A DNA stretch of 64,000 bases. Origin: an uncultured Gammaproteobacteria bacterium. GTDB lineage: Bacteria; Pseudomonadota; Gammaproteobacteria; CAWCPV01. Of this stretch, positions 126-62,118 are shown one piece after another (position 1 is the stretch's first letter; every line of letters starts with the position of its first letter). Position numbers and translations under genes: made by a program. The notes beneath the pieces are model-generated. The model did not search any database. It was not told the DNA's origin and was given only the letters and a program-made list of their open reading frames with translations. Location of the stretch: NCBI GenBank assembly GCA_963797555.1, contig CAWCPV010000009.1, positions 32,001 to 96,000 of the forward strand. The letters are read 5' to 3'.

Positions 126-989
126 TTACGGGGGACTGCCGGGCGGGCCCCGGCGCGCGATCGCCGTCTCCACCAAGGCCAGGAAACCGGGCTCGTCGCG
201 CACGCCCGCCACCTCGTCCGTGGTCACCGTGTAACCGTCCTGATCGGCGATGGCCGCGTAGCGCGGCCGGCGCGAGCAAAAGAGCTTCGGGAAGCTCCAG
301 CGCACGAAGTCGTCGGGATCGATCAGCGCAACGTAAGGCAAACCCCTCTCCTCCATGAAGAGCTGTAGCTGCTCCTCCAGAAATGCTTCACGGTAGTAAA
401 GGGGCTTCGGGTCCTCCTCGGCGCGCCGCATCAGCTCCTGTTCGTCGTTCTCGGTGGCCTGGAGATACAGTATCAGCGTGTGCTGGGCGAGCCCCGGAAT
501 CACGTCCGGGTCGTCCAACTCGCAGATGCTGCCACCGGCGTCGTTGACGAAGTGCTGGTAGCCATAAATCTCGCGCGCCTTGCGAATGAACTCCGGAACG
601 TCCTTCATGGACGCGATCTCGGCCCTGCGATGCAACTCCTGCCGGCGCTTGAACTCTCGGAGAGACAGCCCTCCTTGCTCGGGGTCACCGAGCTTTCCGA
701 GGAAGCTGGACACGGGCTTCAAGTTGTCGACGGTGATGTTGTTGCTGAAGTAAATCGAGTCCGAGCGCAGCAGATCGCGCAAGAACGGGACCTGCATGGC
801 TTGCTGCTTGATGTTGTCCAGGATCGGCTCGTCTAAGTAGCGTGTCCCGATACGGTAGTCGCCCGAGTAATGGAACCAGTTGCGTTTGCGCAGCAGGTTG
901 GCCAGGCGCGTCTTTCCCACCCCCGACATGCCGAGGAGCGTGATGCACCGGTTCTCCCACTCTCGGAACTCGTTGACGCTGAGTTTCAC
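126..989 (-). CDS. P-loop ATPase/kinase-like conserved protein
   Basis: 287 aa ORF with Walker A GMSGVGKT near the N-terminus and VNDAGGS motif; divergent from the EPS locus. Confidence 0.85.
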   Translation of the reverse strand: MKLSVNEFREWENRCITLLGMSGVGKTRLANLLRKRNWFHYSGDYRIGTRYLDEPILDNIKQQAMQVPFLRDLLRSDSIYFSNNITVDNLKPVSSFLGKLGDPEQGGLSLREFKRRQELHRRAEIASMKDVPEFIRKAREIYGYQHFVNDAGGSICELDDPDVIPGLAQHTLILYLQATENDEQELMRRAEEDPKPLYYREAFLEEQLQLFMEERGLPYVALIDPDDFVRWSFPKLFCSRRPRYAAIADQDGYTVTTDEVAGVRDEPGFLALVETAIARRGPPGSPP

Positions 990-1123
990 CCGGGCCGGCC
1001 TCGACGGTCAGCGAAGTTCATGATTCTAATGCCCGGGGCTCCTGGGTTCCAATGGCGCGCCTCCCGTCGCACGCGGCTTCCGGGAGCAGTTCCCACCGAC
1101 GGCGCCGTTGGAAAGACTGGTGC

Positions 1124-1151
1124 TTGACATCAGCGAGGATTCGCTTATGAT
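1124..1151 (+). promoter_or_regulatory. sigma70-type promoter
   Basis: TTGACA (1124-1129), 16-bp spacer, TATGAT (1146-1151); ~45 nt upstream of a riboswitch. Confidence 0.7.
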
Positions 1152-1191
1152 AGCTCGCACACGACGCTGAAGAAGTCTTCGAGCGTCGAGG

Positions 1192-1279
1192 CCTGATAAA
1201 GGCAAACTCACCGCAAGGTGGGGGCGCAAAGCTGCGGGTCCGGTGCCCTAGTTAGGGTTTGGACAGCCGAGCTGCCGGG
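1192..1279 (+). ncRNA. c-di-GMP-I (GEMM) riboswitch aptamer
   Basis: AAGGCAAACTCACC-GCAA-GGTGGGGGCGCAAAGCTGCGGGTC...GACAGCCGAGCTGCCG matches the GGCAAAC-P2(GNRA)-CGCAAAG-P3-GCTGCC pattern; G at the Vc2 G20-equivalent position. Confidence 0.9.
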
Positions 1280-1517
1280 ACACAGGGGACGTGTGGCAGC
1301 TGATCCCGAGGAGGGGTCCAGTGGGCGCTAATACTGCTTCTGCTATTGCTGTACGCAGTTCTCCGGTGGCTTCAAAACACACCGGCGAAACTGGAGAGGC
1401 GCGCACCTGCCACTCTATTCCGTCAGCCGTTGTGTCCGACGGCAATCCCCCCATTTGGTCTTGGTCGGCGATATGAAGGCCGGGCGTGCCTGTGTAGGCA
1501 AAACGCCATGCAACGCC

Positions 1518-1552
1518 GGCCAGGAAGTGTCAGCTTCCGCCTCGGAGCGTCA
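1518..1552 (+). promoter_or_regulatory. putative enhancer (bEBP binding sites), copy 1
   Basis: two imperfect TGAC-N7-GTCA dyads at 20-bp period (GGCC-AGGAAGT-GTCA, CGCC-TCGGAGC-GTCA); homologous to the reverse complement of 48185-48219 and 62198-62232. Confidence 0.6.
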
Positions 1553-1639
1553 CCCTTGCAGCGTGGTGGCGGACCGCTTGAAACATCGCAGTCGGTCCAA
1601 CCACTGTGCTTCTGCTTGTGTCGAGCGCCATGATTGGTT

Positions 1640-1655
1640 GGGCATGAGACTTGCT
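1640..1655 (+). promoter_or_regulatory. sigma54 (-24/-12) promoter, copy 1
   Basis: GGGCATGAGACTTGCT versus consensus TGGCACG-N4-TTGCW; correct GG-N10-GC spacing. Confidence 0.75.
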
Positions 1656-1761
1656 TGAAGGTCTGCAATACTGGGGGGACATCTTAGTCGTCTCCCCGGG
1701 GACGACTTAGACCGCGAAACTTCTGCGAACCATCGTTCGTGGAAGCCAGAGGCGGGGGTTA

Positions 1762-2670
1762 TTTAACTCAATGCGAAGCGCGCGGGCGCTTTGCAGGGCG
1801 GTAGCGTACCCGAACGCGGGCAGTGGGCACCGCCCACGGGCACTCGGTGAAGCCGAGCGCCAACAGGATCTTTGCGCCTGGAGCTGTTGCGGGGCTGGGT
1901 CCTGCGAGTGCGGCAATTTTCCCATTTCCGGAGTGTCGCACAGCAAAGCTTAAGGTTTCATTAAGAGGTAGGGACTGAGGAGCGAAGTCGTTTAACTCGA
2001 TGCGAAGCGCGCGGGCGCTTTGCAGGGCGGTAGCGTACCCGAACGCGGGCAGTGGGCACCGCCCACGGGCACTCGGTGAAGCCGAGCGCCAACAGGATCT
2101 TTGCGCCTGGAGCTGTTGCGGGGCTGGGTCCTGCGAGTGCGGCAATTTTCCCATTTTCGGAGTGTCGCACAGCAAAGCTTAAGGTTTCATTAAGAGGTAG
2201 GGACTGAGGAGCGAAGTCGTTTAACTCGATGCGAAGCGCGCGGGCGCTTTGCAGGGCGGTAGCGTACCCGAACGCGGGCAGTGGGCACCGCCCACGGGCA
2301 CTCGGTGAAGCCGAGCGCCAACAGGATCTTTGCGCCTGGAGCTGTTGCGGGGCTGGGTCCTGCGAGTGCGGCAATTTTCCCATTTCCGGAGTGTCGCACA
2401 GCAAAGCTTAAGGTTTCATTAAGAGGTAGGGACTGAGGAGCGAAGTCGTTTAACTCGATGCGAAGCGCGCGGGCGCTTTGCAGGGCGGTAGCGTACCCGA
2501 ACGCGGGCAGTGGGCACCGCCCACGGGCACTCGGTGAAGCCGAGCGCCAACAGGATCTTTGCGCCTGGAGCTGTTGCGGGGCTGGGTCCTGCGAGTGCGG
2601 CAATTTTCCCATTTCCGGAGTGTCGCACAGCAAAGCTTAAGGTTTCATTAAGAGGTAGGGACTGAGGAGC
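1762..2670 (+). repeat. tandem array of 229-bp units (3 full + one 222-bp copy)
   Basis: units start at 1762, 1991, 2220, 2449; near-identical (I see single substitutions in copy 1, TCAATG vs TCGATG, and copy 2, CCATTTTCGG vs CCATTTCCGG). Confidence 0.97.
1797..1807 (+). promoter_or_regulatory. ops-like element (RfaH/JUMPstart core), repeated at 2026, 2255, 2484
   Basis: GGCGGTAGCGT on the sense strand upstream of a long polysaccharide cluster. Confidence 0.7.
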
Positions 2671-2871
2671 TGATCGGGGGCCGAAGCGTGCGTAGGAAAG
2701 GACTATGCGCCCCGAGAACTGGCGTCCTATCGGACCCGACTACATGGAGGAACTGGGCGATGGCGCGGGCCTGTACCTGAACGCGCCCGAGCATACCTCT
2801 GGTGCAGTGAGTCGATGAGCCGGCGGCGGTGGGATCAAGTTCTCCCATACGACGGACCGGAGGATAACGCG

Positions 2872-3045
2872 ATGTACAAGATGATGTACAAGATCGTTGG
2901 TATGGGCTATGTCGGACCACAGCGCGTGCCAGTCGCCATCGACTATATCGTATGGGCCGCGGGCTACGATGACGCCATCAGGAGGGTCCGTCAGCTCGGA
3001 ATAATGGTCCTCCAGTGCACAGTGAACTCCGTTGGTCAACATTAG
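2872..3045 (+). pseudogene. eroded N-terminal fragment of a nucleotide-sugar dehydrogenase
   Basis: KIVGMGYVGP...GYDDAIRRVRQL resembles ISVIGLGYVGLP...GFDINPQRIQEL of the 25724 gene. Confidence 0.45.
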
Positions 3046-3370
3046 GTAAAGAGCTGCCCCGGCCGCTGAGAACTCTGCCACTTGCCAGGTCCCGGAACGC
3101 CGAGGACTTAGGCGTCTTGCCACGCGCGACTTGGGCGGTGGCGTGGCGTTCAAAACCGGTGGCATCGCGGGTCCAATCTGCGGCTTACCTCCAGGGCGGA
3201 CTGCTCCGGCCCCGACCATGAACAGTTGGGCAACACACTCGACTATCGGTCCGTGCAGTTCGGTCGTTACCGCCTGAGGAGCAGTGGTGACGATTCAGCT
3301 TAGTCCGAAGCAGACGCATTCATGCCAAAGGCTCCGTAATTCCGGTCGGTCATTGTGACAGGGGCGAGAT

Positions 3371-5201
3371 ATGTGCGGGATCATGGGATTAGTAGCTGAC
3401 GGTGAGCATCGGGCCGCGCCTGTTCTGTTGGACGGTCTCCGCCGGCTAGAGTATCGGGGCTATGATTCGGCGGGTATCGCCACCCTGGTGAATGGTCACA
3501 TTCTCCGTCGTCGGGCGGCAGGCAAGCTTTGCCAGTTGGAGCGTTTGCTGGACGAGAAGCCTTTGGGTGGGAGCATCGGCATCGGTCATACGAGGTGGGC
3601 GACGCACGGTCCACCGATCGCTGAGAATGCCCACCCCCACGCGACCGAGCGTGTGGCCGTCGTTCACAACGGCATCATCGAAAACTTCCAAGTTTTGAGA
3701 ACAGAGTCTCTTCGAACGTGGGTGTCGGTTCACTAGTGAGACCGACACGGAAGTCATTCCGCACCTCATTACCCACTATCTGGGGCAGGGCTTGGCTCCC
3801 GAAGTGGCGGCCGCTGAGGCCATAAAACGGCTGGAGGGTGCCTACGCGCTCGTTATTATGTTCGCTGGAGAGCCCGACCTGTTGTTGGGAGCGAGGCGCG
3901 GAAGCCCCCTCGTTGTAGGCGTGAGCGGACCCGCCACATACCTTGCCTCAGACGCGATTGCGCTAGTGCCCTTTACGCGAGATATCGTGTATTTGGAGGA
4001 GGGTGATCTCGCGCACATCAGCCGCCGCGGGTTCAAGGTTTACGATGCAGCCGGCGCCCTTGCTGCACGCCAGTCCAGACGCACGACCCTCACGGCGAGC
4101 CCCGTCGGCAAAGGCGAGTACGCGCACTTCATGCAAAAGGAAATCTTTGAGCAGCCTGCGGTGCTGACCCAAACCCTCAGACGCTATCGCAGTCCCACCG
4201 CCGGGCATGTCGAGTTACCCAAACTTCCTTTTGACCTCGCCACTCTGCCTAAGTTGACCATGGTTGCCTGCGGTAGCTCCTACTATGCTTGCCTAGTAGG
4301 GAAGTACTGGCTGGAGCACATCGCTGGAGTGCCAGTGGAGGTCGACGTGGCGTCTGAATTCCGTTATCGCGCGACGCCGTTACCTCAAGGGGGCGCCGCA
4401 CTCTTCGTGTCCCAGTCTGGCGAGACGGCCGATACTCTGGCGGCGTTGCGCCACACGCGCGCCCATGGGCAGCATATCCTCGCGGTGGTCAACGTTGCTG
4501 AAAGCAGTATGGCACGCAGTTCCGACGTGGTCTTTCAGACCCTCGCCGGACCTGAGATCGGCGTTGCATCTACGAAGACTTTCACGGCCCAGCTCATGGT
4601 CCTAGCTTGCCTCACTCTGGCCGCGGCCCGGGCAAGAGGGGTGCTGAGTCCCGGACACGAGGCGTACCTCACGGCCGCCCTTCTCCAGGTGCCCTCCCTG
4701 GTCACAGAGGTGCTGGCACAGGAGAGTGCGCTCCGGCAGCTAGCCCAGACGACGCACTTGGCCGACCGCATGTTCTATATTAGCCGAGGATCGTGCTATC
4801 CGATCGCGCTCGAAGGGGCGCTGAAGGTCAAGGAGATCGCGTACCTCCCCGCCGAAGGCTACCCGGCCGGTGAGCTCAAGCACGGTCCCATCGCCCTCGT
4901 GGACGACCACGTGCCGGTGGTCGTGCTGGCACCCCGCGACGCCCTCTTTGAGAAGACCGCATCCAATCTTCAGGAGGTAGCAGCACGCCGCGCCCACGTC
5001 ATTCTTATGAGCGATGCTACCGGCACCAGCGCTCTTCAGGAGCACGCTGCTGCTGTACTCGTGCTTCCAGAGGTCGAGCCGTTCGTTGCGCCTATGATCT
5101 ATGCTGTAGCCGTCCAGCTACTCGGTTACTATATTGCAGTGCTGCGAGGCACCGACATCGACCAACCGCGCAACTTGGCCAAGTCAGTGACAGTAGAGTA
5201 A
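3371..5201 (+). CDS. glmS: glutamine--fructose-6-phosphate aminotransferase (one frameshift near 3705)
   Basis: MCGI start, [21 protein letters not shown]-terminal [11 protein letters not shown]; split ORFs 3371-3736 and 3792-5201. Confidence 0.95.
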
Positions 5202-5311
5202 GGCGCATGTTGCGGGCACTTTGTCATGGGGGAGCGGACCGGACCAGATCGGCGCGCGCCGCGACTCGGGGCGTGTGGGTATGAGCGGTCGAGGTTGCGG
5301 CGTTTGGGAAT

Positions 5312-5986
5312 ATGACGACACCAGCAAATGACTCCAGGAAGGCCCGTCGTCATGGGTGGCGCGGGATCGTCCATCTCGGACTTCTCACGGTGACATGTCT
5401 CATGTCGGGCTGCGGCGCCCTTCCGGCCGATCAAGCGAAATCGGGCGTTCAAGCCCCGGAGCCCGCATCGAGCGGCGCAGCCGTCTACAAGGTCGGTGTG
5501 GACGACGAACTCGAGGTCAAGGTCTGGAGGAACGAAGAGCTTTCGGTCAAGGTCCCGGTCCGGCCGGATGGCAAGATCTCCGTGCCACTCATTGGAAACG
5601 TCCAGGCGGCCGGCAAGACTCCAGAGGAAATTGCCGGCGAGATCGAGCAGAAGCTCGCCTTCTACGTGCTCGACCCCAAGGTTACGGTGATCCTAACGGC
5701 GCTCAGGAGCAACGAGTATCTGTCGCGCGTCCGGGTGACCGGTGCTGTCGAGCATCCGCTCTCGATGCCTTACCGTCGCGGAATAACCGTTCTCGACATC
5801 ATCCTGCAAGCAGGCGGCGTCAACAAGTTTGCGGCTCCGGATCGCACAAAGGTCTACAGAAAAGCCGGCAACGCAACCCAAGTGATCCCTGTCAAGCTCG
5901 GTAAGATATTGGAGAAAGGAGAGTTGTCCACCAATATCGAGCTCCGTCCAGGGGATGTAGTCACGGTTCCGGAAGGTTATTTTTGA
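5312..5986 (+). CDS. wza: polysaccharide export lipoprotein (Wza/OPX, XrtA-system type)
   Basis: lipobox LMSGC, VPVRPDGKISVPLIG PES motif, SLBB domain ending LRPGDVVTVPE. Confidence 0.9.
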   Translation: MTTPANDSRKARRHGWRGIVHLGLLTVTCLMSGCGALPADQAKSGVQAPEPASSGAAVYKVGVDDELEVKVWRNEELSVKVPVRPDGKISVPLIGNVQAAGKTPEEIAGEIEQKLAFYVLDPKVTVILTALRSNEYLSRVRVTGAVEHPLSMPYRRGITVLDIILQAGGVNKFAAPDRTKVYRKAGNATQVIPVKLGKILEKGELSTNIELRPGDVVTVPEGYF

Positions 5987-7551
5987 ATCCCATGACGTTA
6001 TCACCCGAGACGCTGAGACTGCTTTTCCACGATGCTCTACGATTTAGAGCAGCGATTGTCGGCATATTTGTTCTTGTCAGCCTGGCAGTGTTGGGTCTGG
6101 CCTTGGTATGGCCGTATTATTATGCCTCGTCGACGACGATATACGTCCAAGAATCCAATATCATCGAGCCTCTGATGAAGGGCACGGCCGTCGCAACGGA
6201 GGTGGCGGATCGTGCCCAGATCGCCCAACAGGTAATAATGGGCGGAAAGGTCTTGGATAAGTTGTTGGATAAAGGTGGGTGGCCGAAGGAAGAGCTGGCG
6301 GGTGTTCGCCGGGCGGCCTTCATGCGGCGACTCATAGGCCGGATCACCGTGTCTAACGAGGGGAAAAACCTTATCCGAATCACGTATTCGGACACTGATC
6401 CCGAAAGGGCGCATCAGGTTACTGACCGACTGGCTGAACTTTTTATCGACGAGAGCGATTTCACCAAAGTCCGTGAGAGTGTGTCAGCCTTTCAGTTCAT
6501 CGATAAACAGGTCGGTGTATACGAGGAAAAGTTGGCAGAGGCCGACAAGAACCTGCAGGCGTTCATGGCAGCGCACCCGGAAGCACGGCCGGACTCGCAA
6601 GCAAGGGTGGGTCAGAGATTAGACGCACTTCGGGCGAAGATCGATGAGACCAGGCTAGCGATCAAGGAGGCGCAGACTCGCAATGCGGCGCTGGACAAAC
6701 AGCTTTATGGGGAAGCCGCCTTGACGGCCAGCCTCAGCCGAGAGGCACAGTACCGAGACCGACTGGCGCAATTACAGAAGAAGCTCGACACGCTCCGCCT
6801 GAGCTACCGCGATACGTATCCGGACATCATCAGTCTCAAGCGCCAGATAGAGGAGCTGACACAGACGATCGCTGCGGAAGACCAGCGGCGGGGCGGCCGA
6901 AGAATCACACTGCAGGCGCGTCACAGTGACGACGGTAACGACGCGGATGCCAGTAGCGTGAGCGTTAACCCACTGTATGAAGTGTTGCTAAAGGCGGCTA
7001 CGGAAACGAAGACACAGATTGACACGTTACATACGCGGCTCGCAGAAACAGAAGCGCTCTTGTCCAAGGAAATGGAAAACGCTCCATATCTCGACGAGCT
7101 AGGTGGAAAACTGGCGAACCTGAACAAGACCCACGAGTTTTACCGAAATACCGTCGCAGATCTCATACAGCGGAGGGAGCATGCGAAGCTGTCAGTGGAG
7201 CTTGAACAGGGGCAGCACGGGCTGACCTTCAGAGTCCAGGAGCCCGCCTCAGTTCCGATCAAGGCAAGCAAGCTCGGCTTTGTACAGTTTGCCGCTGGGG
7301 GAATCGTGCTGGGCATCGCCCTACCGATCGGACTTCTTTTCACTAAGTTGAATGTGGATCCCAGGATTCTGTTACAGTCCTCCATCTCGGAGGGGTTGGG
7401 ATTGCCGACGATGGCGGTCGTGCCATACCTGTCCTGCCCCAGGGAGAGGCGGCGGTTTGTTATCAACGGCATCCTCTTGGTTTTGGGCTTGTTGGTGTAC
7501 CTTGTCGGTTACGGCGCAACGGTGGGATTGCGCCTCAAAGGCATGATATGA
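5983..7551 (+). CDS. polysaccharide chain-length determinant / co-polymerase (Wzc N-terminal, GumC-like)
   Basis: N-terminal TM, long coiled coil with YRDTYPDI, C-terminal TMs; overlaps both neighbours. Confidence 0.88.
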   Translation: MNPMTLSPETLRLLFHDALRFRAAIVGIFVLVSLAVLGLALVWPYYYASSTTIYVQESNIIEPLMKGTAVATEVADRAQIAQQVIMGGKVLDKLLDKGGWPKEELAGVRRAAFMRRLIGRITVSNEGKNLIRITYSDTDPERAHQVTDRLAELFIDESDFTKVRESVSAFQFIDKQVGVYEEKLAEADKNLQAFMAAHPEARPDSQARVGQRLDALRAKIDETRLAIKEAQTRNAALDKQLYGEAALTASLSREAQYRDRLAQLQKKLDTLRLSYRDTYPDIISLKRQIEELTQTIAAEDQRRGGRRITLQARHSDDGNDADASSVSVNPLYEVLLKAATETKTQIDTLHTRLAETEALLSKEMENAPYLDELGGKLANLNKTHEFYRNTVADLIQRREHAKLSVELEQGQHGLTFRVQEPASVPIKASKLGFVQFAAGGIVLGIALPIGLLFTKLNVDPRILLQSSISEGLGLPTMAVVPYLSCPRERRRFVINGILLVLGLLVYLVGYGATVGLRLKGMI

Positions 7552-10230: not shown

Positions 10231-13200
10231 ATGCGTCACAGCTATCTTTGGGCGCTTCTATTGGGATTCCTGACGATGGTCTCCCTGGGCCAGCCAACAA
10301 CGTTGGCGCCCGGGGCGCTCCCTGCGGCGGCTGGGCTAAGCCAGGCTTTCCAGGCCCGTGCACAGCTCACGACCGTTGCCTTCAGTCCGAATGGAGAGAC
10401 CGTGGCGGCGGTAGGAAATGACCACGGTGTCGTGCTCTGGGACATACGCTCCGGCCAGGAACGTTTCCCTTTATTTTGGAACGGATCCCCGATCACGGCG
10501 GTCGCGTTTAGCCCGGATGGAAAGACCTTGGCGGGCATTGGCGACGATGACCGGATCACCTTGTGGAATGCGCTGAGCGGCCAGGAGCGCGTTACCGTAT
10601 CCGCCGACCGCTTTGGCGCCCACGTGACGGACGTGGCTTTCAGCCCGGATAGCAAGGCTCTGGCCAGCATCGGAGCTAATGATGCACGGGTCATCGTGTG
10701 GGACACGGCGACCGGTGCAGCCAGATTGGTATTATCCGGTCATGGCGACCCTGTCAACGCGATAGCCTTTAGTCCCGATGGAAAGCTGTTAGCCAGTGGC
10801 GGCAAAGATTCAGAGGTCATCTTGTGGGACCCGGCCACGGGTGCGGAAACGGCGGCCCTTGCTGGCCTTGATGGCGCGGCCGTGAACCAGGTGACTTTCA
10901 GCCCCAACGGCAAGACGCTGGCCAGCACGGGCTCGGATAACAAGATCCGGGTGTGGGATGTGGCGACGGGCGCCCTTCAACAGACCCTCGATACCCACGC
11001 GGGTGCCGTCACCCAGGCCGCCTTTAGTCCGGACGGCAGCACCCTGGTGAGCGTGGACAACGGCACTAGGATCGACCTCTGGGATGTTGCCACCGGCCAG
11101 ATCCGCTTAACCCTAACCCATGCTCCGGGCGTCACAGTAAACAACGTCGCCTTTAGCCCGGACGGTCAGATTCTGGCCAGTGCGGCGGATGACACTGAGA
11201 TCATGCTTTGGGATATGGGCACCGGCAATTTGCGCGGTGTTCTCAGCGGCGGGTCTGACTTTGCGGTCGCGGTGGCCTTCGGTGCCGATGGGACGATGCT
11301 CGCAAGCGTGGCCAGGGATGGCCGGATTACCCTATGGGATATCACCACCGGTGCCCGAGTCCTCAGTGCCCTCGGGCCGCCGCCTATTATCGACCCCAGT
11401 ACCGCTAGCGGCGCCAACCTGGGGAGCCTTGACGCGGCCTTCAACACCTCTGGTCAACCGAACGGAGCTACGAGCGTATCAGCGCCCGCTTCCGCGGTCT
11501 CCCAGTCCGCGCTTTCACAAGCCGCCACGGCGCCTGTTTCGACCGGCGCCAGCAAAGGGCCAACTCCACGCAACAGAACTCATGCGCAGAATCGCAAGGG
11601 GGTCATCGCACTTGCCCTCAGCCCCGATGGGGCGCTATTGGGCAGCGCCAGTGACGACGATCGCATCCGTATATGGAACGCAGCGACAGGCCAGGTGAGA
11701 CTCACGCTCAGCGGTCTCCCGGGGGCCTTGGTGACGGGCGTTGCCTTCACGGGGGATGGGAAGCGGCTTGCGACCGTCGCCAGGGACAGCGTGGTGCGTC
11801 TGTGGGATGTGACTAGTGGAGCTGCGACCCAGGTTCTCCGAGGCCACGAACAACCCATCCGGGCCATCGCCAGCAGCCCGGATGGCAAGTTCTTGGCGAG
11901 CGCCGGAGAGGAGACCCGCATCATGCTTTGGGATGCGTCGACTGGCAGGCTGAGCAAGGTTCTGAACGGCCATACAGACTTTGTCAACGGCGTCGCCTTT
12001 AGCCCCGACAGCAAGCTGCTGGTGAGCGCGGGCGCCGACGCCCAGGTCTTGGTCTGGGATGTTGCAACTGGAAAACTGCTGCAGACGCTGCGCGGACATA
12101 GCAGTGATGTCAATGCCGTCGCTTTCAGCCCGGACGGAAGGCTCGTCGCAAGCGCCGGCGACGACAGTCTCGTTATCGTCTGGGATGTCGTCACCGGAGT
12201 GCAGTGGCCGCCCCTTCAGGGACATCAGCAACCGGTCAGCGCGGTCGCGTTCAGCCCGAACGGCCAGTTGCTTGCCAGCGCCGGCGAAGATGCCCGTATC
12301 ATTCTATGGGACGTGGCGACCCATACACTGCGCAAGATCCTCTCAGGGACTCCCAATGTCATCAACGCGCTGATCTTCGGCAAAGGCGGAACGTCGCTGA
12401 TGGCCGGCAGTGCGGACAACGCGTTGAGATTTTGGGACCTGTCCCGGTCTGCGGTCAGCAACACCATCCAGGTGCCAAACCTGCCGCCCGCGACTGCGAG
12501 CTCCACTGTAGCCCCGGCCGCGACCACCATTAGCTTAAACCTAGCGACCCCCTTCCCCCGTACGCCCGCGGAGATAGGGCAACTGAGACATGGCCGCAGC
12601 CCGAGCAATGGGCGACTGTCTGAGCTGGGCATTCTGGATCGGCTGTGGAACTGGGTGCTGCCTGCGGCCGATGCCGCAACCCTGCCCGATCCCAACCAGG
12701 GTCCTGGCGGACCCATCCTCGTCGTCACCTCGGCTTCCTCCACGTACGGCAAATATTACGCGGAGATCCTGCGCACCGAAGGACTCAATGAATTTGCCGT
12801 GATGGATGCTGCAGCCGTGACGTCGACGACGCTGAATGCCTATGATGCGGTCATCCTCGCGACGCCGTTGGCTGCTTTTCAGCAGATCCCTGATCCGGTC
12901 AGCATGTTGAGCAGTTGGGTAACCGCCGGCGGAAAGTTGATTGCGATGCAGCCCGACCCGCAGCTCGCCAGCCTGCTCGGACTCACCTCGACCGGGTTCA
13001 CGCTGTCCAATGGCTACCTGCTCGTGGATACGTCGAAGGCGCCCGGCAACGGTGTCGTGAGCCAGCCAATGCAGTTCCACGGCACTGCGGACCTCTATAC
13101 GCTGAGTGGCGCTGCGAGCGTGGCCATGCTTTATACGAATGTGACCACGGCCACACCAAATCCCGCGGTAACGCTGCGTAGCGTCGGCCCCAACGGTGGC

Positions 13201-16200
13201 CAGGCTGCGGCCTTTACCTATGATCTGGCCACGTCCATTGTGTACTCGCGCCAGGGAAACCCGGCGTGGGCAACACAAGAGCGCGATGGAGTATCGCCGA
13301 TCCGTTCCGATGATAAGTTCTATGGCGCGGCCGCCGGCGATCCGCAGCCGGACTGGGTAGATCTGGACCATGAGGTAGCGGTCCCTCAGGCCGACGAGCA
13401 ACAGCGGCTGCTGGCCAATCTCATCCTCCAGATGGATCTCGACAAGAAACCTTTGCCCCGATTCTGGTACTTCCCTCGCGGCAAGAAGGCCGTCGTGATC
13501 ATGACCGGCGACGATCACGCCAATGGGGGGACCGCGGGTCGATTCGACCAGTACATCGCCGCCAGCCCTGCCGGGTGCAGCGTGGCGAACTGGGAGTGCA
13601 TCCGATCCACCTCATATATCTATGTCGAGCCCGATAATCTAACGAATGCTCAGGCCGCGAGTTACACGGCGCAGGGCTTCGAGGTGGGGCTCCACCTCAA
13701 TACCAATTGCGCCGATTTCACACCAGACCAACTGGACACCTTCTATAGCCAGCAGGTTTCGGATTTCACGAGCTCCTATCCGAGTGTCCCGGCCCTGTAT
13801 ACCCAGCGGCACCATTGCATCGCTTGGAGCGACTGGGTCACGGGTGCGAAGACGGAGTTCAAATATGGAATGCGGCTAGACACCAGCTATTACTTTTGGC
13901 CGCCCGGTTGGCTGCAAAACCGTCCGGGCTTTTTCACCGGCTCTGCCATGCCCATGCGTTTCGCGGACCTCAATGGGACCATCATCGATGTCTACAACGC
14001 CACAACGCAGATGACCGATGAATCGGGCCAGAGCTATCCGTTCACGAGCGACGCCCTGTTGAGCGCAGCGGTAGGCCCACAGGGCTACTACGGGGCCTAT
14101 ACGGTCAACGCGCACACGGATAGCGTCGATAATCCGGTGTCCGACGCGGTCGTGGCTTCCGCCCTCGCGCGCGGCGTACCCATCGTGTCCAGCGTTCAAA
14201 TGCTGAACTGGCTGGACGCCCGCAACGCTTCTTTCTTCGGCGGCCTGACCTGGAGTGGCAATGCCCTGAACTTTACTGTCACACCCGGGAACGGCGCCAA
14301 CGGCCTGCAGGCCATGGTGCCCACGCATTCCAGTGCCGGGGTGCTCAGTGGCATCACGGGTCCCAGCGGCAACGTGGCATACACGACCGATAGCATCAAA
14401 GGCATCGAGTATGCCTTTTTCTCCGCCGCTGCAGGGGCCTACACCGCCACCTATGCGGCAGACACGACGCTGCCGACCGTGACTTCGACCTCCCCCGCTA
14501 CTGGCGTCACCGGGGTGAGCCAGGGCACGACGGTCACGGCCACGTTTAGCAAGGCGATGGACTCGGCCACGATCAATACGGGGAGCGTCGTCTTGCTTGG
14601 CCCTGGCAGCAGTGCGGTGCCGGCGACAGTAACCTACGCTGCGGGCAATGACACCGCAACGCTCTCGCCAAACAGCGTCCTCGCGGCGTCGACGACCTAC
14701 ACCGCCACCGTGAAGGGTGGCGTCGCCAAGGACTTGTCGGGCAATGCGCTCGCTGCCGATTACACATGGTCCTTCACGACGGCCGCCGCGCCGCCCTGTC
14801 CGTGCAGTGGTTGGAGCAGTTCCACGACGCCCGCGAATCCGTCAGAGGCCGATCCGAATCCCGTGGAATTGGGGGTCAAGTTCCGCACGGATGTAGGCGG
14901 TGTGATTACCGGTATTCGCTTCTACAAGGGGACCAGCAACACGGGCACTCACGTCGGCAACCTTTGGACCACCACAGGGCAGTTGCTGGCGACGGCAAAC
15001 TTCACCAACGAGACCGCCACGGGTTGGCAGCAGGTGACCTTTTCCAGTCCTGTCCCAGTGAGCGCCAATATCGTTTACGTCGCGTCGTACTTCGCGCCTA
15101 ATGGGAATTACGCCGCCGACACCAATTATTTTGCCAACACGGGCGTGGATAACTACCCGGTTCATCTGTTGCAGGACGGGGTGAGCGGGGGCAACGGCGT
15201 GTATAACTATGGCGCCAGCTCGTCCTTCCCCGCTTCCACCTATCAGTCGAGCAATTACTGGGTGGACGTGGTCTTTACCACGAATGCGGGCCCTGCCCCG
15301 CTGAGCGTGACCGCGACGACGCCGGCCAATGGCGCGACGGGGGTGAGTCCGGGCATGGAGGGCTCGGGAATCACCATCAATGCCACCTTCAACAATACCC
15401 TCGATACGACGACCATCAGCGCATCGACCTTTACCTTGAAAGATGCCAGCAGCACGCTGGTACCCGCCTCCGTCAGCGCGGCCGGGAACACGGCGACGCT
15501 CACCGCGACCAGTCCGCTGGCGACCTCGACGACTTATACCGCCGCCCTGACCACTGGTGTGAAGGATGTCAATGGCAGCGCCCTGGCCGCCAATTACACG
15601 TGGTCCTTCACCACGGCGGGCGGGAGTGGCGGTTGCAGCTCCCCGCCGAACTCCATCGTGGCCGAGAACTGTCTGCCGGGAAACCCGGCATCCGAATGGG
15701 ATATCTCCGGCGCTGGCGATCCGAGCATCCAGGGCTTCGCGACGGATATCAGCGTGAACAAGGGGGGCACGGTCAACTTCAAGATCGATACTGATGCCAC
15801 CGCCTACCGCCTGGACATCTATCGAATGGGTTATTACGGTGGAATGGGGGCGCGCAAGGTGGCCACGATACAGCCTTCCGCACCCTTGCCGCAGACGCAG
15901 CCCGCCTGTTTGACTGATGCTGCTACCGGGCTCATCGACTGCGGGAACTGGGCGGTGTCCGCTTCGTGGACCGTACCGACCACGGCGACATCGGGAATTT
16001 ACTTTGCCCACGCGGTGCGCACGGATACCGGCGGGGACAGCCACATCTTCTTTATTGTGCGAGACGACGCGAGCCGCTCCGACGTCCTGTTCCAGACCTC
16101 GGACACGACCTGGCAGGCATACAACGACTATGGCGGCAACAACCTCTACACCGGGTCGCCGGGCACGAACCCCGCGCGGGCCTACAAGGTGAGCTACAAC

Positions 16201-19200
16201 CGCCCGTTCCACACCCGGGTATATGAGCCCGAGAGCTGGGTGTTCAACGGCGAGTACCCGATGGTGCGCTGGCTCGAGGCCAACGGCTATGACGTGACGT
16301 ATTTCACTGGGGTCGACGCAGACCGCAGCGGTGCGCTCATCGAAAACCACAAGGTGTGGATGTCGAACGGCCACGATGAATACTGGTCGGGCCTCGAGCG
16401 GACGAACGTAGAAGCGGCCCGGGACGCCGGAGTCAACCTGGCCTTCTTCAGCGGCAATACGATTTTCTGGAAGACGCGCTGGGAGAATGCGATCGACGGC
16501 TCCGGTACACCCTACCGTACCCTGGTCTGCTACAAGGAGACGCACGCCAACCGGGTGATTGACCCTTCGGATCCGCCCACCTGGACGGGCACTTGGCGAG
16601 ACCCACGCTTCAGTCCGCCAGCGGACGGCGGGCGGCCGGAGAACGCGCTGGTGGGAACGATTTTCCGCATCAACGGACCATACACCGAGGCCATCACGGT
16701 ACCGGCCGAGGATGGAAAGATGCGGTTCTGGCGCAATACCCCGGTGGCCGCGCTGGCCGCTGGTCAAACCGCCACGCTCGCTCCCGGCACCCTGGGGGCT
16801 GAGGTGGACGTGGACGAGGACAACGGCTTTCGGCCACCCGGTCTCTTCGGGGTTTCCACCAACCCCATCACCACGGGCAGCAATTATCTGGAGGATTACG
16901 GAAGCACCTACGGTGCGGGCACGGCGACCCAGAAGGTGACGCTGTACAAGGCGCCAAGCGGCGCCTGGGTGCTCGGCGCTGGCACCTACCAGTGGTCGTG
17001 GGGTCTGGACTCCAACCACGACCGTAGCAGCCTGGGAGCGACCACCAATGGCGCGATGCAGCAGGCGACCGTAAACCTGTTCGCCGATATGGGCGTGCAG
17101 CCCGCCACCCTCGAGCCGGGCCTGACGCTGGCAACGGCGTCGACCGATACGGTCGCTCCAACTCGGCGATTACCTCGCCTACGGCCGGCGCGAACGTGCC
17201 GCAGGGTAGTCCGCTGACGATCAGCGGCACGGCGACCGATACAGGGGGTGGTGTCGTCGGAGGGGTCGAGGTTTCACTCGATGGCGGTACGACCTGGCAT
17301 CCTGCTATTGGGCGTGGGACTTGGAGCTACATATGGACGCCCAGTGCAGCGGGTTCGGTAACCCTCAAGAGCCGCGCGGTCGACGATAGCGGGAATCTGG
17401 AAACCCCCAATGCCGGCGTCACCGTTACGGTCGGCGCAGGCGGAACGGGCTGCACGAGCAGCTGCACCATCTGGCCCAGCACGGCGGTGCCGACGCTGGT
17501 GGATGGTGGCCCGGACAGCGCGGTGGAGCTAGGGGTCAAGTTCAGGTCCGATGTGGCAGGTACCATCTCCGGCATCCGGTTCTACAAGGCGAGCACCAAC
17601 ACCGGCACGCATGTCGGCAACCTGTGGTCGAGCACCGGGACAAAGCTCGCGACGGTCACGTTCAGTGGCGAGAGCGCCTCCGGGTGGCAGCAGGCGAGCT
17701 TCTCGCCGCCGGTTGCGATCACCGCCAACACCGTCTACGTGGCCTCGTATCACACCACCGTTGGGCACTACAGCGCCGACGTGAACTATTTTTCGAGCAA
17801 CGGGGTAGACAATCCGCCGCTGCACGCGCTGGCCAACGGGGTCTCGGGCGGCAACGGGGTGTACGCCTATGGGGCGAGCAGTGCCTTCCCGAGCCAGACC
17901 TGGAACAGCGCCAACTACTGGGTGGATGTGGTGTTCAGTTCAGGTCCGGCGCCGACGCTGCAGTCGATCGCAGTGACACCGGTAAACCCGACGATTCAGA
18001 CCGGGGGGACACAGCAGTTCACCGCTACCGGGACCTACTCGGATAGCTCCACGCAGAACCTCACTAGTCAAGTGACCTGGAGCTCGTCGGCGACATCGGT
18101 GGCGACCGTCAGTACAAGCGGGTTGGCGACCGGCGTCGGTGCCGGCAGTACGACGATCTCGGCGGCGCTGGGCAGTGTTTCCGGGGGCACTGGGCTGACT
18201 GTAAAGGCCGCGCCGACGCTGCAATCGATCGCAGTGACACCGGCGAACCCGACGATTCAGACCGGGGGGGCACAGCAGTTCACCGCTACCGGGACCTACT
18301 CGGATAACTCCACGCAGAACCTCACCAGTCAGGTGACCTGGAGACTCGTCGAGCACCGCGGTGGCTACTGTCAGTGCAAGCGGGTTGGCGACTGGCGTAG
18401 GAGCCGGCAGCACGACCATCTCGGCGGCGCTGAGCAGTGTTTCCGGGAGCACTGGGCTGACGGTGCAGGCTGCGCCGCTGGCGATCACTACGGCATCGCT
18501 ACCCGCCGGGACCGTGGGTGTGGCCTACTCGGCGACACTCACGGCGAGCGGTGGGACCCCGCCGTACACTTGGTCTCTCGCAAGCGGTTCGCTGCCCGCT
18601 GGCCTGACCTTGAACTCCAGCGCCATCAGCGGGACGCCCACGGCGGCGGGTACTGCCAACTTCACGGTTCAGGTGTTCGATTCTGCCAGCCCTGCCGCAA
18701 ACATCACCAAGGCGCTGAGCATCACCGTCGCCGCAGCCGCGACCGCCGTCACCATCTGGCCCAGCACGACGGTGCCGGGGACGGCAGACGCCGGTCCGGA
18801 CAGTGCGGTGGAGCTAGGGGTCAAGTTCCGGTCCGATGTTGCGGGCAGGATCACCAGCATCCGTTTCTACAAGGGGAGCGGTAACACCGGGACGCATGTC
18901 GGAAACCTGTGGTCGAGTACCGGCACCAACCTAGCCTCGGTCACCTTCAGTGGCGAGACCACCTCCGGATGGCAGCAGGCGAACTTTGCCACACCAGTGT
19001 CCATCACCGCCAACACCGTGTATGTCGCTTCGTATCACACCAACGTCGGGCATTATGCCGATAACCAGAACTACTTTGCGACCGCGGGGGTAGATAATCC
19101 GCCGCTGCATGCGCTTCAGAACGGTGTGTCGGGCGGGAACGGGGTGTACCGTTATGGCTCGAGCAGCGGGTTCCCGAACCAGACATGGAATACCTCCAAC

Positions 19201-33733: not shown

Positions 33734-35620
33734 ATGTGCGGAATCTGCGGAAAACTAAATTTCGATCGGCAAGAGCCTGTTGATAATGGGCTCCTCGGCA
33801 TAATGATGGACCTCATTCAACATCGAGGGCCGGACGGAAGCGGGAAATTCCTATCCGGTCCTGTCGGCCTTGGGCACCGCCGGTTGAGCATCATCGATCT
33901 CAACACCGGCGGGCAACCCATGTCCAATGAAGACGGTACGGTGTGGGTAGTTTACAACGGTGAGATCTACAATTTTCACGAACTCCGGACCAAGCTTGAA
34001 GAACGCGGCCACCGGTTCAAGTCCACAACGGACACCGAGGTCATTGTCCATTTATATGAGGAAATGGGCGATCAATGCGTGACTCGGCTTCGGGGCATGT
34101 TTGCCTTTGCCCTATGGGATGAGCGCCAACAGCGACTCCTTCTGGCCCGCGACCGTGTCGGCGTCAAACCACTTTACTATACCAATACCGGGAAGGCCTT
34201 ATTTTTGCATCTGAACTGAAGTCACTGCTCGCCGATCCGGACCGTCGAGCGGCGGGTTAATCCGCGCGCGGTAGACCGGTTTCTCACTTACTATTATTTG
34301 CCGGGCAACGAAACGATGTTCGAGGGTATCTATAAATTGGACCCTGGCCACTATCTTACTGTGAAGATGGACAGATCTCCGTACACCAATATTGGGATCT
34401 GCGCTTCGATGCACCGTCGCGCATTCAAAGCTTTCATGAGGCGGTCGAGACACTGCGAGAATTGCTCTCCCGGGCAGTCAAGGACCACATGATCAGCGAC
34501 GTGCCGGTAGGGGTGTTGCTAAGCGGCGGTGTGGATTCTACCGGCGTGCTGCGCCATGCGGTGCAGCAGACGGATAAGCCTATTCATACGTTTACCATAG
34601 GTTTCAGCGGAGCGAGTTTCGAAGATGAGCGACCTTACGCTAGGTTAGTGTCGGAAAAGTTCGGGACCGTTCACCATGAAATCTCAATGCATGCCAATGA
34701 CTTTCGCGAATTTTTGCCCAAGTATGTCTGGCACATGGAGGACCCGTCTGCGAACCTCCTGCAGTCGCTTTGTATTTCGTATCGCAGTTGGCGCGGCAAT
34801 CTTCGATCAAGGTGCTTTTGTCGGGGGAAGGAGGAGATGAAGCCTTCGGCGGCTATCAAACTACCGCAATATTCTCATGCTTGAAAGTTTAAAGTTGGTG
34901 TTCGGGCCGGCGAAAGGGCTTCTGCGCTTAGGATTTCAGGCTCTGGAGCTGGCGGGCTGGAGAGCGATCGGCACAGTACGCGAGCCTGACCGATCCACCG
35001 CTTTCAGAATACTATCTAAGCCGCACAGCAACACCGTACACGCCTTTAACCAACTGAAGTCGAGTCTTTATAACAAACAGTTCGCGGCGACCCTCCATGG
35101 TCAGGCATCGGACATACCCACACGCAGGTTGTTCGAGCGGATCGAAGACCAATCGCTGCTCAACCGGATGCTGTACGTGGACACGAAGACTTGGCTTCCG
35201 GACGACCTGCTAGTCAAGGCTGATAAAATGACTATGGCGACATCCGTTGAGTTGCGGGTGCCATTGCTCGATTTCCACGTGCTGGAGTTTGCGGCGTCGC
35301 TTCCGCAGCGCTACAAGGTAAGAGGTTGGCAGCTGAAGCGGGTGCTGAAGGCAGCCTTGGGTCAGTCTGTTCCCCCGGAGATTATCGGACGGAGAAAGAC
35401 GGGCTTCCCGGTCCCCTATGATGTGTGGATGCGCAAGGAGATGAAGGACTTCGTCTTTGATACGGTCTTGGCGAAGAACGCAGCGGCAGAAGCCTATTTC
35501 TGCAGACGGACGGTTTCTAAGTTGCTCGCGGCCCACCAGAAAAGCGGCCGGTACGCAAAGGAGGTGTTCTGCTTGCTCGTGTTTGAGCTTTGGCACCGCC
35601 GATTTCTTGGAACACCGTGA
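33734..35620 (+). CDS. asnB: asparagine synthase (glutamine-hydrolysing)-like amidotransferase (multiple frameshifts)
   Basis: MCGICG, HRGPDG, LGHRRLSIIDL, LSGGVDS, LLVKADKMTMATSVELRVPLLD. Confidence 0.88.
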
Positions 35621-39851: not shown

Positions 39852-41067
39852 ATGCCTCTGTCTGTTAGAGTGTTAATGCTCGTCGAAAATAATCCCTTCC
39901 CGCTTGATTTCCGTGTGCGCCGGGAGGCAAACACGTTGCGTGATGCCGGGTATCGGGTTGCCGTCATTGCTCCGCGGGGAGCTACTCAGCCATGGATGGA
40001 GAACATTGACGGTATCAGAGTTTATCGTTTCCCCGCTCCGCGACGGGTACAGGTATACTTGGCTATGCGTTGGAATTCGGCTATTCCACGCTGGCTATGC
40101 TGCTGCTAACAGCATGGGTTGCAGCAAAAGAAGGAATTGACGTAATTCATGCGGCAAATCCCCCTGACACGCTCTTTGTCATCGGTGCGATATTCAAGGC
40201 GTTTAGAAAACGGTTTGTATATGACCATCATGACCTCGCCCCGGAGATTTACCTTTCTCGTTTCGGTGCGGCTCGTTCTAAGGTTGTTTATAGAAGTTTG
40301 TGTGTTCTTGAGCGTTGTTCCTACGCTGTGGCGGACGCAGTTGTGGCTACAAATGAGTCGTACAAACGAATAGCTATAACCCGGGGCAAGCAGGATCCTT
40401 CCAAGGTGTTCGTTGTTCGTAACGGTCCCCCGCTTTCTTATCAGCCGCTTAAGCTGAACCCGAAATGGCAAATAGAGCGAGGCATCTCATTGGGTACATT
40501 GGGACGATAGGACCGCAAGACGGCTTACATCACTTGTTAGGCGCCATACACGAGATGGTCTATAGTCTGGGGCGACGTGATTTTCTCGTTGTCATTATAG
40601 GAGACGGGGATGCCTTACCGGGTGTCCGAGCCTTAGCCAAGGATTTGGAAATTGAGTCTTACGTTTGGTTCACCGGTCGGCTAGCTGAACACCAAGCTCG
40701 CAAGTATCTTTCCGCAGTTAGTGTTTGTGTTCAGCCGGATCCATTAAGTCCATTGAACGACAAGTCCACAATGAACAAACTTATGGAATATATGGCGCTG
40801 GGCAAGCCGACGGTGGCCTTCGATTTGGTCGAGACGCGATTTTCGGCTCAGGAAGCAGCGCTTTACGTAACGCCAAATAACGATCGAGAGTTCGCGGAAC
40901 GCATCAGCTGGTTGTTAGATAACCCCGAAGAGTGTAAGAAGATGGGTCGAATTGGCCGCCACCGGGTAGCGGGCGCATTGGCATGGGAATACTCGGTGCC
41001 CGAACTGCTTCGAGCGTATCGCGATGGTTTGGGGCTCCATGCAAACGGTCTCGTTGGTTCGCCGTGA
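39852..41067 (+). CDS. glycosyltransferase family 4 (two frameshifts)
   Basis: MLVENNPFPLDFRVRREA, HAANPPD, YDHHDL, MNKLMEYMALGKP. Confidence 0.88.
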
Positions 41068-47930: not shown

Positions 47931-47946
47931 AGCAAGCCTCGTGCCC
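47931..47946 (-). promoter_or_regulatory. sigma54 (-24/-12) promoter, copy 2
   Basis: reverse complement GGGCACGAGGCTTGCT, identical to 62103-62118. Confidence 0.75.
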
Positions 47947-61923: not shown

Positions 61924-61996
61924 TATGGCAACTCCCATGCAATAGGCTTGGGGAGCCCCATAGTCGGGGTACTGCAATAGCGCCATCCGTCGACAC

Positions 61997-62080
61997 TCTG
62001 GCAATCCCGCTATCATGGGGCCTGAAGCCCGTTAGACCGGTGACTTTGCGCCCCCACCTTTCGGTAGGTTTGCCCTTTAC
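61997..62080 (-). ncRNA. c-di-GMP-I (GEMM) riboswitch aptamer
   Basis: reverse complement GTAAAGGGCAAACCTACC-GAAA-GGTGGGGGCGCAAAGTCACCGGTCTAACGGGCTTCAGGCCCCATGATAGCGGGATTGCCAGAG; GAAA loop and CTAA receptor. Confidence 0.95.
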
Positions 62081-62102
62081 AGAAGTCCTCACAACAGTTT
62101 CA

Positions 62103-62118
62103 AGCAAGCCTCGTGCCC
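62103..62118 (-). promoter_or_regulatory. sigma54 (-24/-12) promoter, copy 3
   Basis: GGGCACGAGGCTTGCT; predicted +1 near 62092, about 12 nt before the riboswitch. Confidence 0.82.

Follow-up and report, generated by a model that had tools for sequence, protein, structure and literature searches.

Why would the leader of one exopolysaccharide (EPS) operon carry the same hairpin-rich segment four times over, each copy with its own ops motif? The question arises from a 64,000-nt stretch of DNA from an uncultured gammaproteobacterium (the window, positions 32001-96000 of contig C9 in an assembly of 20 contigs that is 84.6% complete), in which a tandem array at 1762-2670 precedes a large cluster of EPS genes; the closest of the 60 relatives that we compared shares only the class of this host. 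A sequence-only reading of the window had described the array and proposed that it is an amplified antitermination or structured-RNA cassette. We find that its observation is confirmed and its interpretation partly supported. Taking both parts jointly, we lean towards the view that a leader segment was recently and locally amplified to four copies to give the array and that, judged by sequence comparison, this segment is a cassette for loading RfaH through suboptimal ops sites.

We delimited the units with Tandem Repeats Finder (TRF), which reports one array on the plus strand at 1762-2670 (period 229, 4.0 copies, 99% matches, 0% indels, score 1804), and by comparing the copies with one another. 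Both approaches recover the four nearly identical 229-nt units that had been claimed:

1762-1990, plus strand: unit 1, 229 nt (TRF and copy comparison)
1991-2219, plus strand: unit 2, 229 nt (TRF, BLAST and copy comparison)
2220-2448, plus strand: unit 3, 229 nt (TRF and copy comparison)
2449-2670, plus strand: unit 4, 222 nt, with the final 7 nt missing (TRF, BLAST and copy comparison)

Relative to copy 3, which served as the reference, copy 1 differs only at unit position 9 and copy 2 only at unit position 167, and copy 4 shows no differences over its 222 nt, for a total divergence of two positions in 909 nt. A BLAST search of the unit against its own 5.35-Mb genome returned the four tandem copies and no match outside the array. 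The absence of the unit elsewhere in the genome argues for local amplification rather than for a dispersed or miniature mobile element.

Each unit carries the ops 12-mer GGCGGTAGCGTA between its first and second hairpins, with 11 of the 12 ops positions matching and the core GGCGGTAG present. The cores lie at 1797, 2026, 2255 and 2484 on the plus strand (non-template, in operon sense), and the window as a whole holds eight matches to the core versus 2.39 +/- 1.51 expected, the four array copies not being independent of one another. Directly 5' of each motif is a 10-bp hairpin (unit positions 11-34), and hairpin and motif together form a module that is repeated without change:

1772-1808, plus strand: conserved module of unit 1, in which a single spacer base separates a GCGG-looped 10-bp hairpin from GGCGGTAGCGTA at 1797-1808
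2001-2037, 2230-2266 and 2459-2495, plus strand: conserved modules of units 2-4, equal to that of unit 1

Nine sites in the genome match the ops 11-mer, four of them in the array and three inside long coding frames on the opposite strand. Since the bare 11-mer is common by chance, we place weight only on the longer motif and its context. The extended 17-mer GGCGGTAGCGTRCCCGA has a single other site in the genome, on contig C7, in an EPS locus with a MarR_EPS gene (TIGR04176, 137.7 bits) and an asparagine-synthase gene; it belongs to the MarR_EPS leader there and has the sense orientation. This site is canonical at positions 11 and 12 (T11-G12) and lies 3 kb downstream of rfaH. The same arrangement, with ops before MarR_EPS, is found in a genome of another family (G010), and the contigs that carry the extended motif have mostly Gammaproteobacteria in their titles. 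These results support the earlier identification of the motif as a JUMPstart-class ops that belongs to the leader of a long operon for polysaccharide. A further ops-like 11-mer, the intergenic GGCGGTAGCGTT (G000 C4:614581, minus strand; ~8082 in locus L183), lies ahead of a response-regulator gene and a 464-aa gene; it could be another RfaH site or have arisen by chance.

We then searched for relatives of the unit with a covariance model, R1, built from unit positions 8-103. Against 92 fetched loci, nearly all with ops, R1 gave seven matches at E<=1, six of which fall at single-copy hairpin-plus-ops sites (L063, L062, L064, L105, L117 and L043; E 0.03-0.7). The likeness in these matches spans the hairpin and ops and fades beyond them; in 150 other genomes of the class, R1 had no match at E<=0.01. 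In an alignment of 11 leaders, for which the hairpin was written by hand, hairpin covariation reached 0.367 compared to 0.177 +/- 0.039 in shuffles, with none of 500 shuffles attaining the observed value, and controls with slid pairing partners gave 0.10-0.20. With the hairpin so written, 70.9% of cells paired, misaligned rows included, versus 59.7% in shuffles, and seven of the ten hairpin pairs showed changes on both sides. The element in the related loci is present in single copy, 9-120 nt before the first frame, and the first downstream open reading frames are polysaccharide genes in seven of eight loci (two frames of L062 had no hit), among them NDP-sugar dehydratases/epimerases, a TviB-type dehydrogenase, a PglK-like ABC exporter and a weak Wzc match. 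Because a covarying hairpin with ops recurs in related leaders before polysaccharide genes, we assign the first ~45 nt of the unit, from these alignments, to the JUMPstart class of hairpin-plus-ops leader elements. The expectation that homologous leaders would keep both the pairing and the ops is thus borne out for these ~45 nt by R1 and covariation. As had been suspected, the complete unit does not belong to a described family: a search of Rfam at E<=10 yields no more than a JUMPstart match below threshold.

Outside this module the unit has no relatives in the sets searched: positions 48-229 found nothing in the host genome, the 60 relatives, the 150 class genomes (searched with the model), the 92 ops loci or 46 metagenome loci. 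BLAST of the unit against the 60 relatives of the same class returned three short, weak matches, one of which is the G010 ops, and a 24-mer from the unit found nothing in metagenome contigs. A natural variant, the only one that could be read, is present in contigs of sequencing run X2 and carries 12 substitutions, all at unit positions 104-195, with positions 10-103 unchanged. Going by these comparisons, the hairpin and ops are the more constrained part of the unit.

Is there an RfaH to be loaded? The sequence-only reading had noted that no rfaH-like gene lies in the window, which is correct, and had directed attention to an RfaH or NusG paralogue elsewhere in the genome. The sole NusG-domain match in the genome is a gene on C7, outside the window, which scores 158.3 bits with the RfaH model TIGR01955 (cut-off 144.5) and 44.9 with the NusG model (cut-off 135.7). 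It aligns with E. coli RfaH (5ond_A) over residues 1-153 with an E-value of 1.7e-21, and keeps K10, R16, R23, E48, T72 and F130, with replacements of H20 by N, H65 by D, R73 by F and I93 by V. Its database relatives at E<=1e-10 number 1038, many of them named RfaH at the source. On these profile and alignment scores, we identify the C7 gene as an RfaH orthologue. A housekeeping NusG was not found in the assembly, which at 84.6% completeness says nothing about the organism.

We also asked whether the tandem state occurs outside this assembly. In Logan contigs, none of which spans the array, a unit-unit junction is bridged with at least 31 nt on each side in two of four runs (X2 record 12 and X4 record 25), which come from different studies; one run may be the source of the assembly itself. 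At least two tandem copies exist outside this assembly, and the count of four comes from the assembly only. A 257-nt contig of run X1 (~93% alike) holds one unit and 26 nt of the next, which is below this bridging rule, and an X1 joint from 1696 to 2445 was disregarded, as it has 22 nt on one side. Depths of the Logan contigs over the unit and its flanks are not copy numbers and were likewise set aside. Among 119 fetched 17-mer loci, a second 8-mer core within 1.5 kb appeared in 13 rows. Five of these loci, all from Pseudomonas (L023, L026, L042, L055 and L127), have two ops cores ~90-100 nt apart on one strand of one leader, the first being GGCGGTAGCTTT or GGCGGTAGCATT and the second the full 17-mer. 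The earlier statement that ops normally occurs once per leader is broadly right, with exceptions in the form of two ops ~90-145 nt apart in the five Pseudomonas loci of 119 and in G134, a genome of the same class. A metagenome scan for two 11-mers 205-235 nt apart gave 46 loci, nearly all of them protein-coding repeats or tRNA arrays, and a sole leader analogue, L162. There, rfaH (167.7 bits) is followed by two ~226-nt cassettes that are identical at 177 of 222 positions (80%); both hold a canonical ops as well as a promoter-like, AT-rich part. Our literature searches, which were in part noisy (opsin papers, a polymerase brand) and did not cover supplements, found no description of a tandem ops array.

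Other kinds of repeats also occur around ops leaders. Locus L074 (Marinobacterium aestuariivivens) has a 177-nt x 6.3 array (5007-6517, 96% matches), without ops, in a 2.3-kb non-coding leader that also holds a 229-nt x 2 repeat; these repeats lie 300-700 nt upstream of a hairpin and ops at 6836. In two metagenome-assembled genomes, one gammaproteobacterial (L069, 2731-4808) and one from the Ectothiorhodospiraceae (L086, 568-1751), an ops leader is duplicated together with a MarR_EPS-type gene, at a spacing of 1.0-1.5 kb and with 78-93% identity.

Several observations weigh against reading the array as an RfaH-loading cassette. First, all four units have T11 followed by A instead of G at ops position 12. 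According to PMC5995543, T11-G12 is common to all validated E. coli RfaH targets, the G12C substitution abolishes the U11 pause and does not abolish RfaH recruitment in vitro when polymerase is slow, and every ops substitution except G2C lowers the effect of RfaH in vivo. Each ops of the array is probably a weaker pause because A12 replaces the pause-inducing G; position 12 is A in 14 and G in 107 of 121 fetched 17-mer sites. Second, the Rfam JUMPstart model (RF01707) scores each unit at 17 bits versus a gathering threshold of 35 (E 2.8), and the bare 11-mer, seen at five loci, would be expected ~7 times per genome from base composition by our own estimate. Third, the ops bases are contacted by RfaH side chains K10, H20, R23 and R73 (PMC5995543), two of which are altered in the C7 protein (N20 and F73), with N20 being nearly invariant among 65 aligned relatives of its subfamily. 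AlphaFold (pLDDT 86.7) draws the C-terminal domain of the C7 protein only as a beta-barrel and not as the autoinhibited helical hairpin, a single model that neither shows nor excludes a fold switch to the helical state. Fourth, tandem ops is uncommon: none of the 119 17-mer loci has a repeat array over its ops, and two 11-mers 40-400 nt apart occur in one of 400 other class genomes (G134), compared to four matches for a reversed-pattern control. Lastly, identity among the copies is 99-100%, which marks the amplification as recent and leaves room for it to be neutral.

The setting of the array bears on how it might work. Upstream of it lie the following elements:

1124-1151, plus strand: sigma70-like promoter, TTGACA-16-TATGAT, with 11 of 12 consensus matches, ahead of the riboswitch
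1192-1280, plus strand: c-di-GMP-I-GGC riboswitch aptamer (RF03167, 69.9 bits versus a gathering threshold of 59)
1640-1655, plus strand: sigma54-type promoter-like site GGGCATGAGACTTGCT with a GG-N10-GC core and a predicted start near 1666

The array begins ~95 nt past the start implied by the sigma54-like site, as had been stated. A 21-nt core of this site recurs at 47931-47946 and 62103-62118, two minus-strand sites that are identical to each other, although the sigma54 motif at two mismatches is at chance level in the window (15 matches versus 12.25 expected). Sigma54 activators exist in the genome, and the acting one is not indicated by matches to the PrsR-type regulator model TIGR02915, of which there are 35 with none above cut-off. 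The riboswitch lies ~480 nt 5' of the array. After it come GAGGAGG and a 51-codon frame that starts with GTG (1321-1476, plus strand) and has neither a family match nor coding-like composition. A second c-di-GMP-I riboswitch (83.1 bits) lies in the 61997-62118 region of the minus strand, with the sigma54-like site at 62103-62118 just ahead of it, and leads into a 726-aa frame (59836-62016, minus strand) containing a 261-nt tandem repeat (60490-61372, 3.2 copies). There is thus a c-di-GMP riboswitch on either flank of the EPS locus.

Downstream of the array, genes on the same strand run to ~45.3 kb, in agreement with the earlier placement of the array in the leader of a 42-kb EPS operon:

2705-3045, plus strand: first open frame after the array, split into 2705-2815 and 2815-3045, with no family match and coding-like GC by codon position
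3371-5201, plus strand: glmS, in two frames with a frameshift near 3730-3790
5312-45315, plus strand: EPS genes of the XrtA/PEP-CTERM type, on a single strand

The EPS genes encode an export protein, a chain-length determinant, a tyrosine kinase and a system ATPase, together with sugar-nucleotide enzymes, priming and other glycosyltransferases, and methyltransferases. Also within the operon is a 2328-aa protein (10231-17217, plus strand) with ~12 WD40 repeats and Big_5, DUF4082 and DMFA2_C domains, which is adjoined downstream by a 562-aa DUF4082/Big_2 protein. GC content at third codon positions is 0.66-0.70 in EPS genes (3371-5986, plus strand) versus 0.85 in the neighbouring gene at 126-989 on the minus strand. 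This lower value suggests that the EPS locus is compositionally foreign; RfaH targets are usually of atypical composition, according to PMC7593976.

How might an RfaH-loading array act in such a leader? Polymerase would start at the sigma54-type promoter at 1640-1655 and meet four non-template ops sites in series, at each of which the RfaH orthologue could board. Once aboard, RfaH would keep NusG and Rho away and sustain transcription across the 42-kb EPS cluster, whose composition is atypical. The A12 sites would be weaker pauses, and having four in series would raise the chance of loading; without RfaH, the same four pause sites would add obstacles to transcription. The G-rich, hairpin-rich leader RNA would, from general knowledge of Rho, be a poor Rho substrate. 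We infer RfaH binding at these sites, the weakening by A12 and an effect of copy number on output. The earlier suggestion that copy number could tune read-through is plausible.

The main rival to this reading, which we regard as possible and clearly the less probable of the two, is that the array is a neutral and transient duplication, in which slippage or unequal recombination multiplied one functional hairpin-plus-ops segment, the extra copies neither help nor harm, and the operon works like one with a single ops. The near-identity of the copies (two differing positions in 909 nt) fits this explanation, as does the confinement of the unit to one place in the genome along with the rarity of arrays over ops (0/119 loci). 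Unrelated non-coding arrays without ops in other long leaders, such as the 177-nt x 6.3 array of L074, point in the same direction. Mildly against neutrality, junctions are found in two further runs, one of which carries the 12-substitution variant, so more than one clone has the tandem state. In L162, both cassettes retain an intact ops although their identity has fallen to 80%, and the 5' module of the unit is unchanged while its 3' half varies; these points also count mildly against a neutral origin.

RfaH loading could be taken one step further, to a copy-number rheostat at the level of elongation, an idea that we consider unlikely. Four weak A12 ops sites would add up to load RfaH, and unequal recombination would vary their number, and exopolysaccharide with it, between strains. 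The ~180 nt of G-rich hairpins that accompany each ops could, on this idea, keep the long leader closed to Rho. If true, the array would be a contingency-type locus whose building block is an antitermination signal, not a promoter or a coding repeat.

Somewhat more doubtful still is that the array is real and was assembled with the wrong number of units, the organism having fewer or more than four. No contig spans the whole array, and frame breaks are numerous in this assembly: in glmS (3730-3790), in a truncated amidotransferase and glycosyltransferase (34877-35620 and 40465-41067) and in a UDP-sugar decarboxylase on C7 (L008, 126-1097). A base is also missing at 2797 relative to two runs; one extra T after this position in contigs of X1 and X2 joins the halves of the first frame downstream of the array (~114 aa). 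These breaks, including the one at 2797, look like assembly indels and not like pseudogenes. However, copies 1 and 2 each have a single-base difference of their own, and a collapsed or inflated repeat would not easily produce these. The frequent single-base indels, a usual pattern in long-read assemblies, also suggest that this assembly was made from long reads, which span 0.9 kb.

We also weighed whether the unit has a function beyond ops as a structured RNA, such as a processive antitermination RNA, a protein-binding scaffold or sponge, or a processed small RNA, repeated for dose; we consider this improbable. The seven hairpins named in the sequence-only reading are where it had placed them, with all 45 pairs standard. 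Four of these pairs are G-U, which makes the pairing specific to the plus strand. One unit folds on the plus strand to -102.8 kcal/mol, with a z-score of -3.36 relative to dinucleotide shuffles and none of 200 shuffles equal to it, whereas the minus strand gives a z-score of -1.73 and is equalled by 9 of 200. The array RNA is also G-rich (GC skew +0.12 to +0.21). The X2 variant speaks for structure in part and against it in part. With respect to the seven named hairpins, seven of its substitutions fall outside stems, one keeps a wobble, two form a compensatory pair (129/143) and two break pairs; three lie in the loop of the 147-180 hairpin, whose stem is unchanged. With respect to the minimum-energy fold, seven of the 12 break pairs. 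This variant is too little evidence for conserved structure in the rest of the unit. Against a separate RNA function, the region 48-229 has no homologue in the sets searched, and Rfam at E<=10 finds only JUMPstart and chance long non-coding RNA matches in 900-3400, with no EAR RNA there or, at gathering level, in the window. A consensus scan found no promoter-like or terminator-like site within the array, and GGA motifs are not enriched (5 per unit versus 5.6 +/- 2.0 in shuffles), for which reason we rejected a CsrA sponge of the CsrB/RsmZ type. The suggested likeness to EAR RNA thus did not hold up for lack of any Rfam match, and a multi-copy non-coding RNA was not borne out either, given that the sets searched held no relatives beyond the hairpin and ops and that the X2 variant breaks much of the predicted 3' structure.

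That each unit encodes a 60-aa cysteine-rich peptide from the ATG at unit position 10 is very improbable and was rejected: although an ATG-initiated 60-codon frame is present in every unit, 10 of the 11 X2 substitutions within it change the amino acid, GC by codon position is flat (0.62/0.64/0.67, versus 0.64/0.44/0.69 in a real gene of the operon), and nothing resembles a Shine-Dalgarno sequence except one stretch ~19 nt ahead of the ATG.

Returning to the array as an RfaH-loading cassette, its interest lies in what it could teach about recruitment. In PMC5995543, the short dwell of polymerase at a single ops is considered the limit on RfaH recruitment. Four identical ops sites in series that lack the pause-promoting G12 offer a natural test of whether the number of sites can replace the strength of the pause, and also of whether a large EPS operon can have its output set by repeat number. 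Should the extra copies be neutral, the array would be a curiosity of repeat dynamics. The analysis also extends the hairpin-plus-ops module to XrtA/PEP-CTERM EPS loci of uncultured Gammaproteobacteria, where it stands beside sigma54-type promoters and c-di-GMP riboswitches.

Among known systems, the array most resembles the ops/JUMPstart elements that act with RfaH on the E. coli waa, rfb, kps, hly and tra operons. As in those systems, GGCGGTAG lies on the non-template strand with a hairpin directly 5' of it, the untranslated leader that holds it precedes a long polysaccharide operon, and the genome encodes an RfaH orthologue. Unlike the E. coli elements, it is present in four tandem copies within 229-nt repeats, has A12 instead of G, scores below the Rfam gathering threshold and includes ~180 nt of lineage-specific hairpins per copy. 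L162 is similar in having an ops leader cassette duplicated in tandem, with a nearly equal period, beside or under an RfaH system. It differs in having two copies that are 80% identical, with a canonical TG and an AT-rich promoter-like part; its cassette shows no likeness to the window's unit beyond ops, and its downstream genes are off the contig. The two-ops leaders of the five Pseudomonas loci and G134 likewise have more than one ops on one strand of a leader, but the sites have dissimilar surroundings and no repeat, and the first Pseudomonas site is the 8-mer core only. In a known gene cluster with several functional ops sites, these are kilobases apart in different intergenic regions rather than in a tandem leader. 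EAR RNA is a cis-acting read-through element of Bacillus eps operons. Like the array, it is tied to an EPS operon, but it acts as an RNA without ops or RfaH. Taken together, these comparisons place the array as a well-known type of control element that is met here in a new setting and in an unusual, amplified form.

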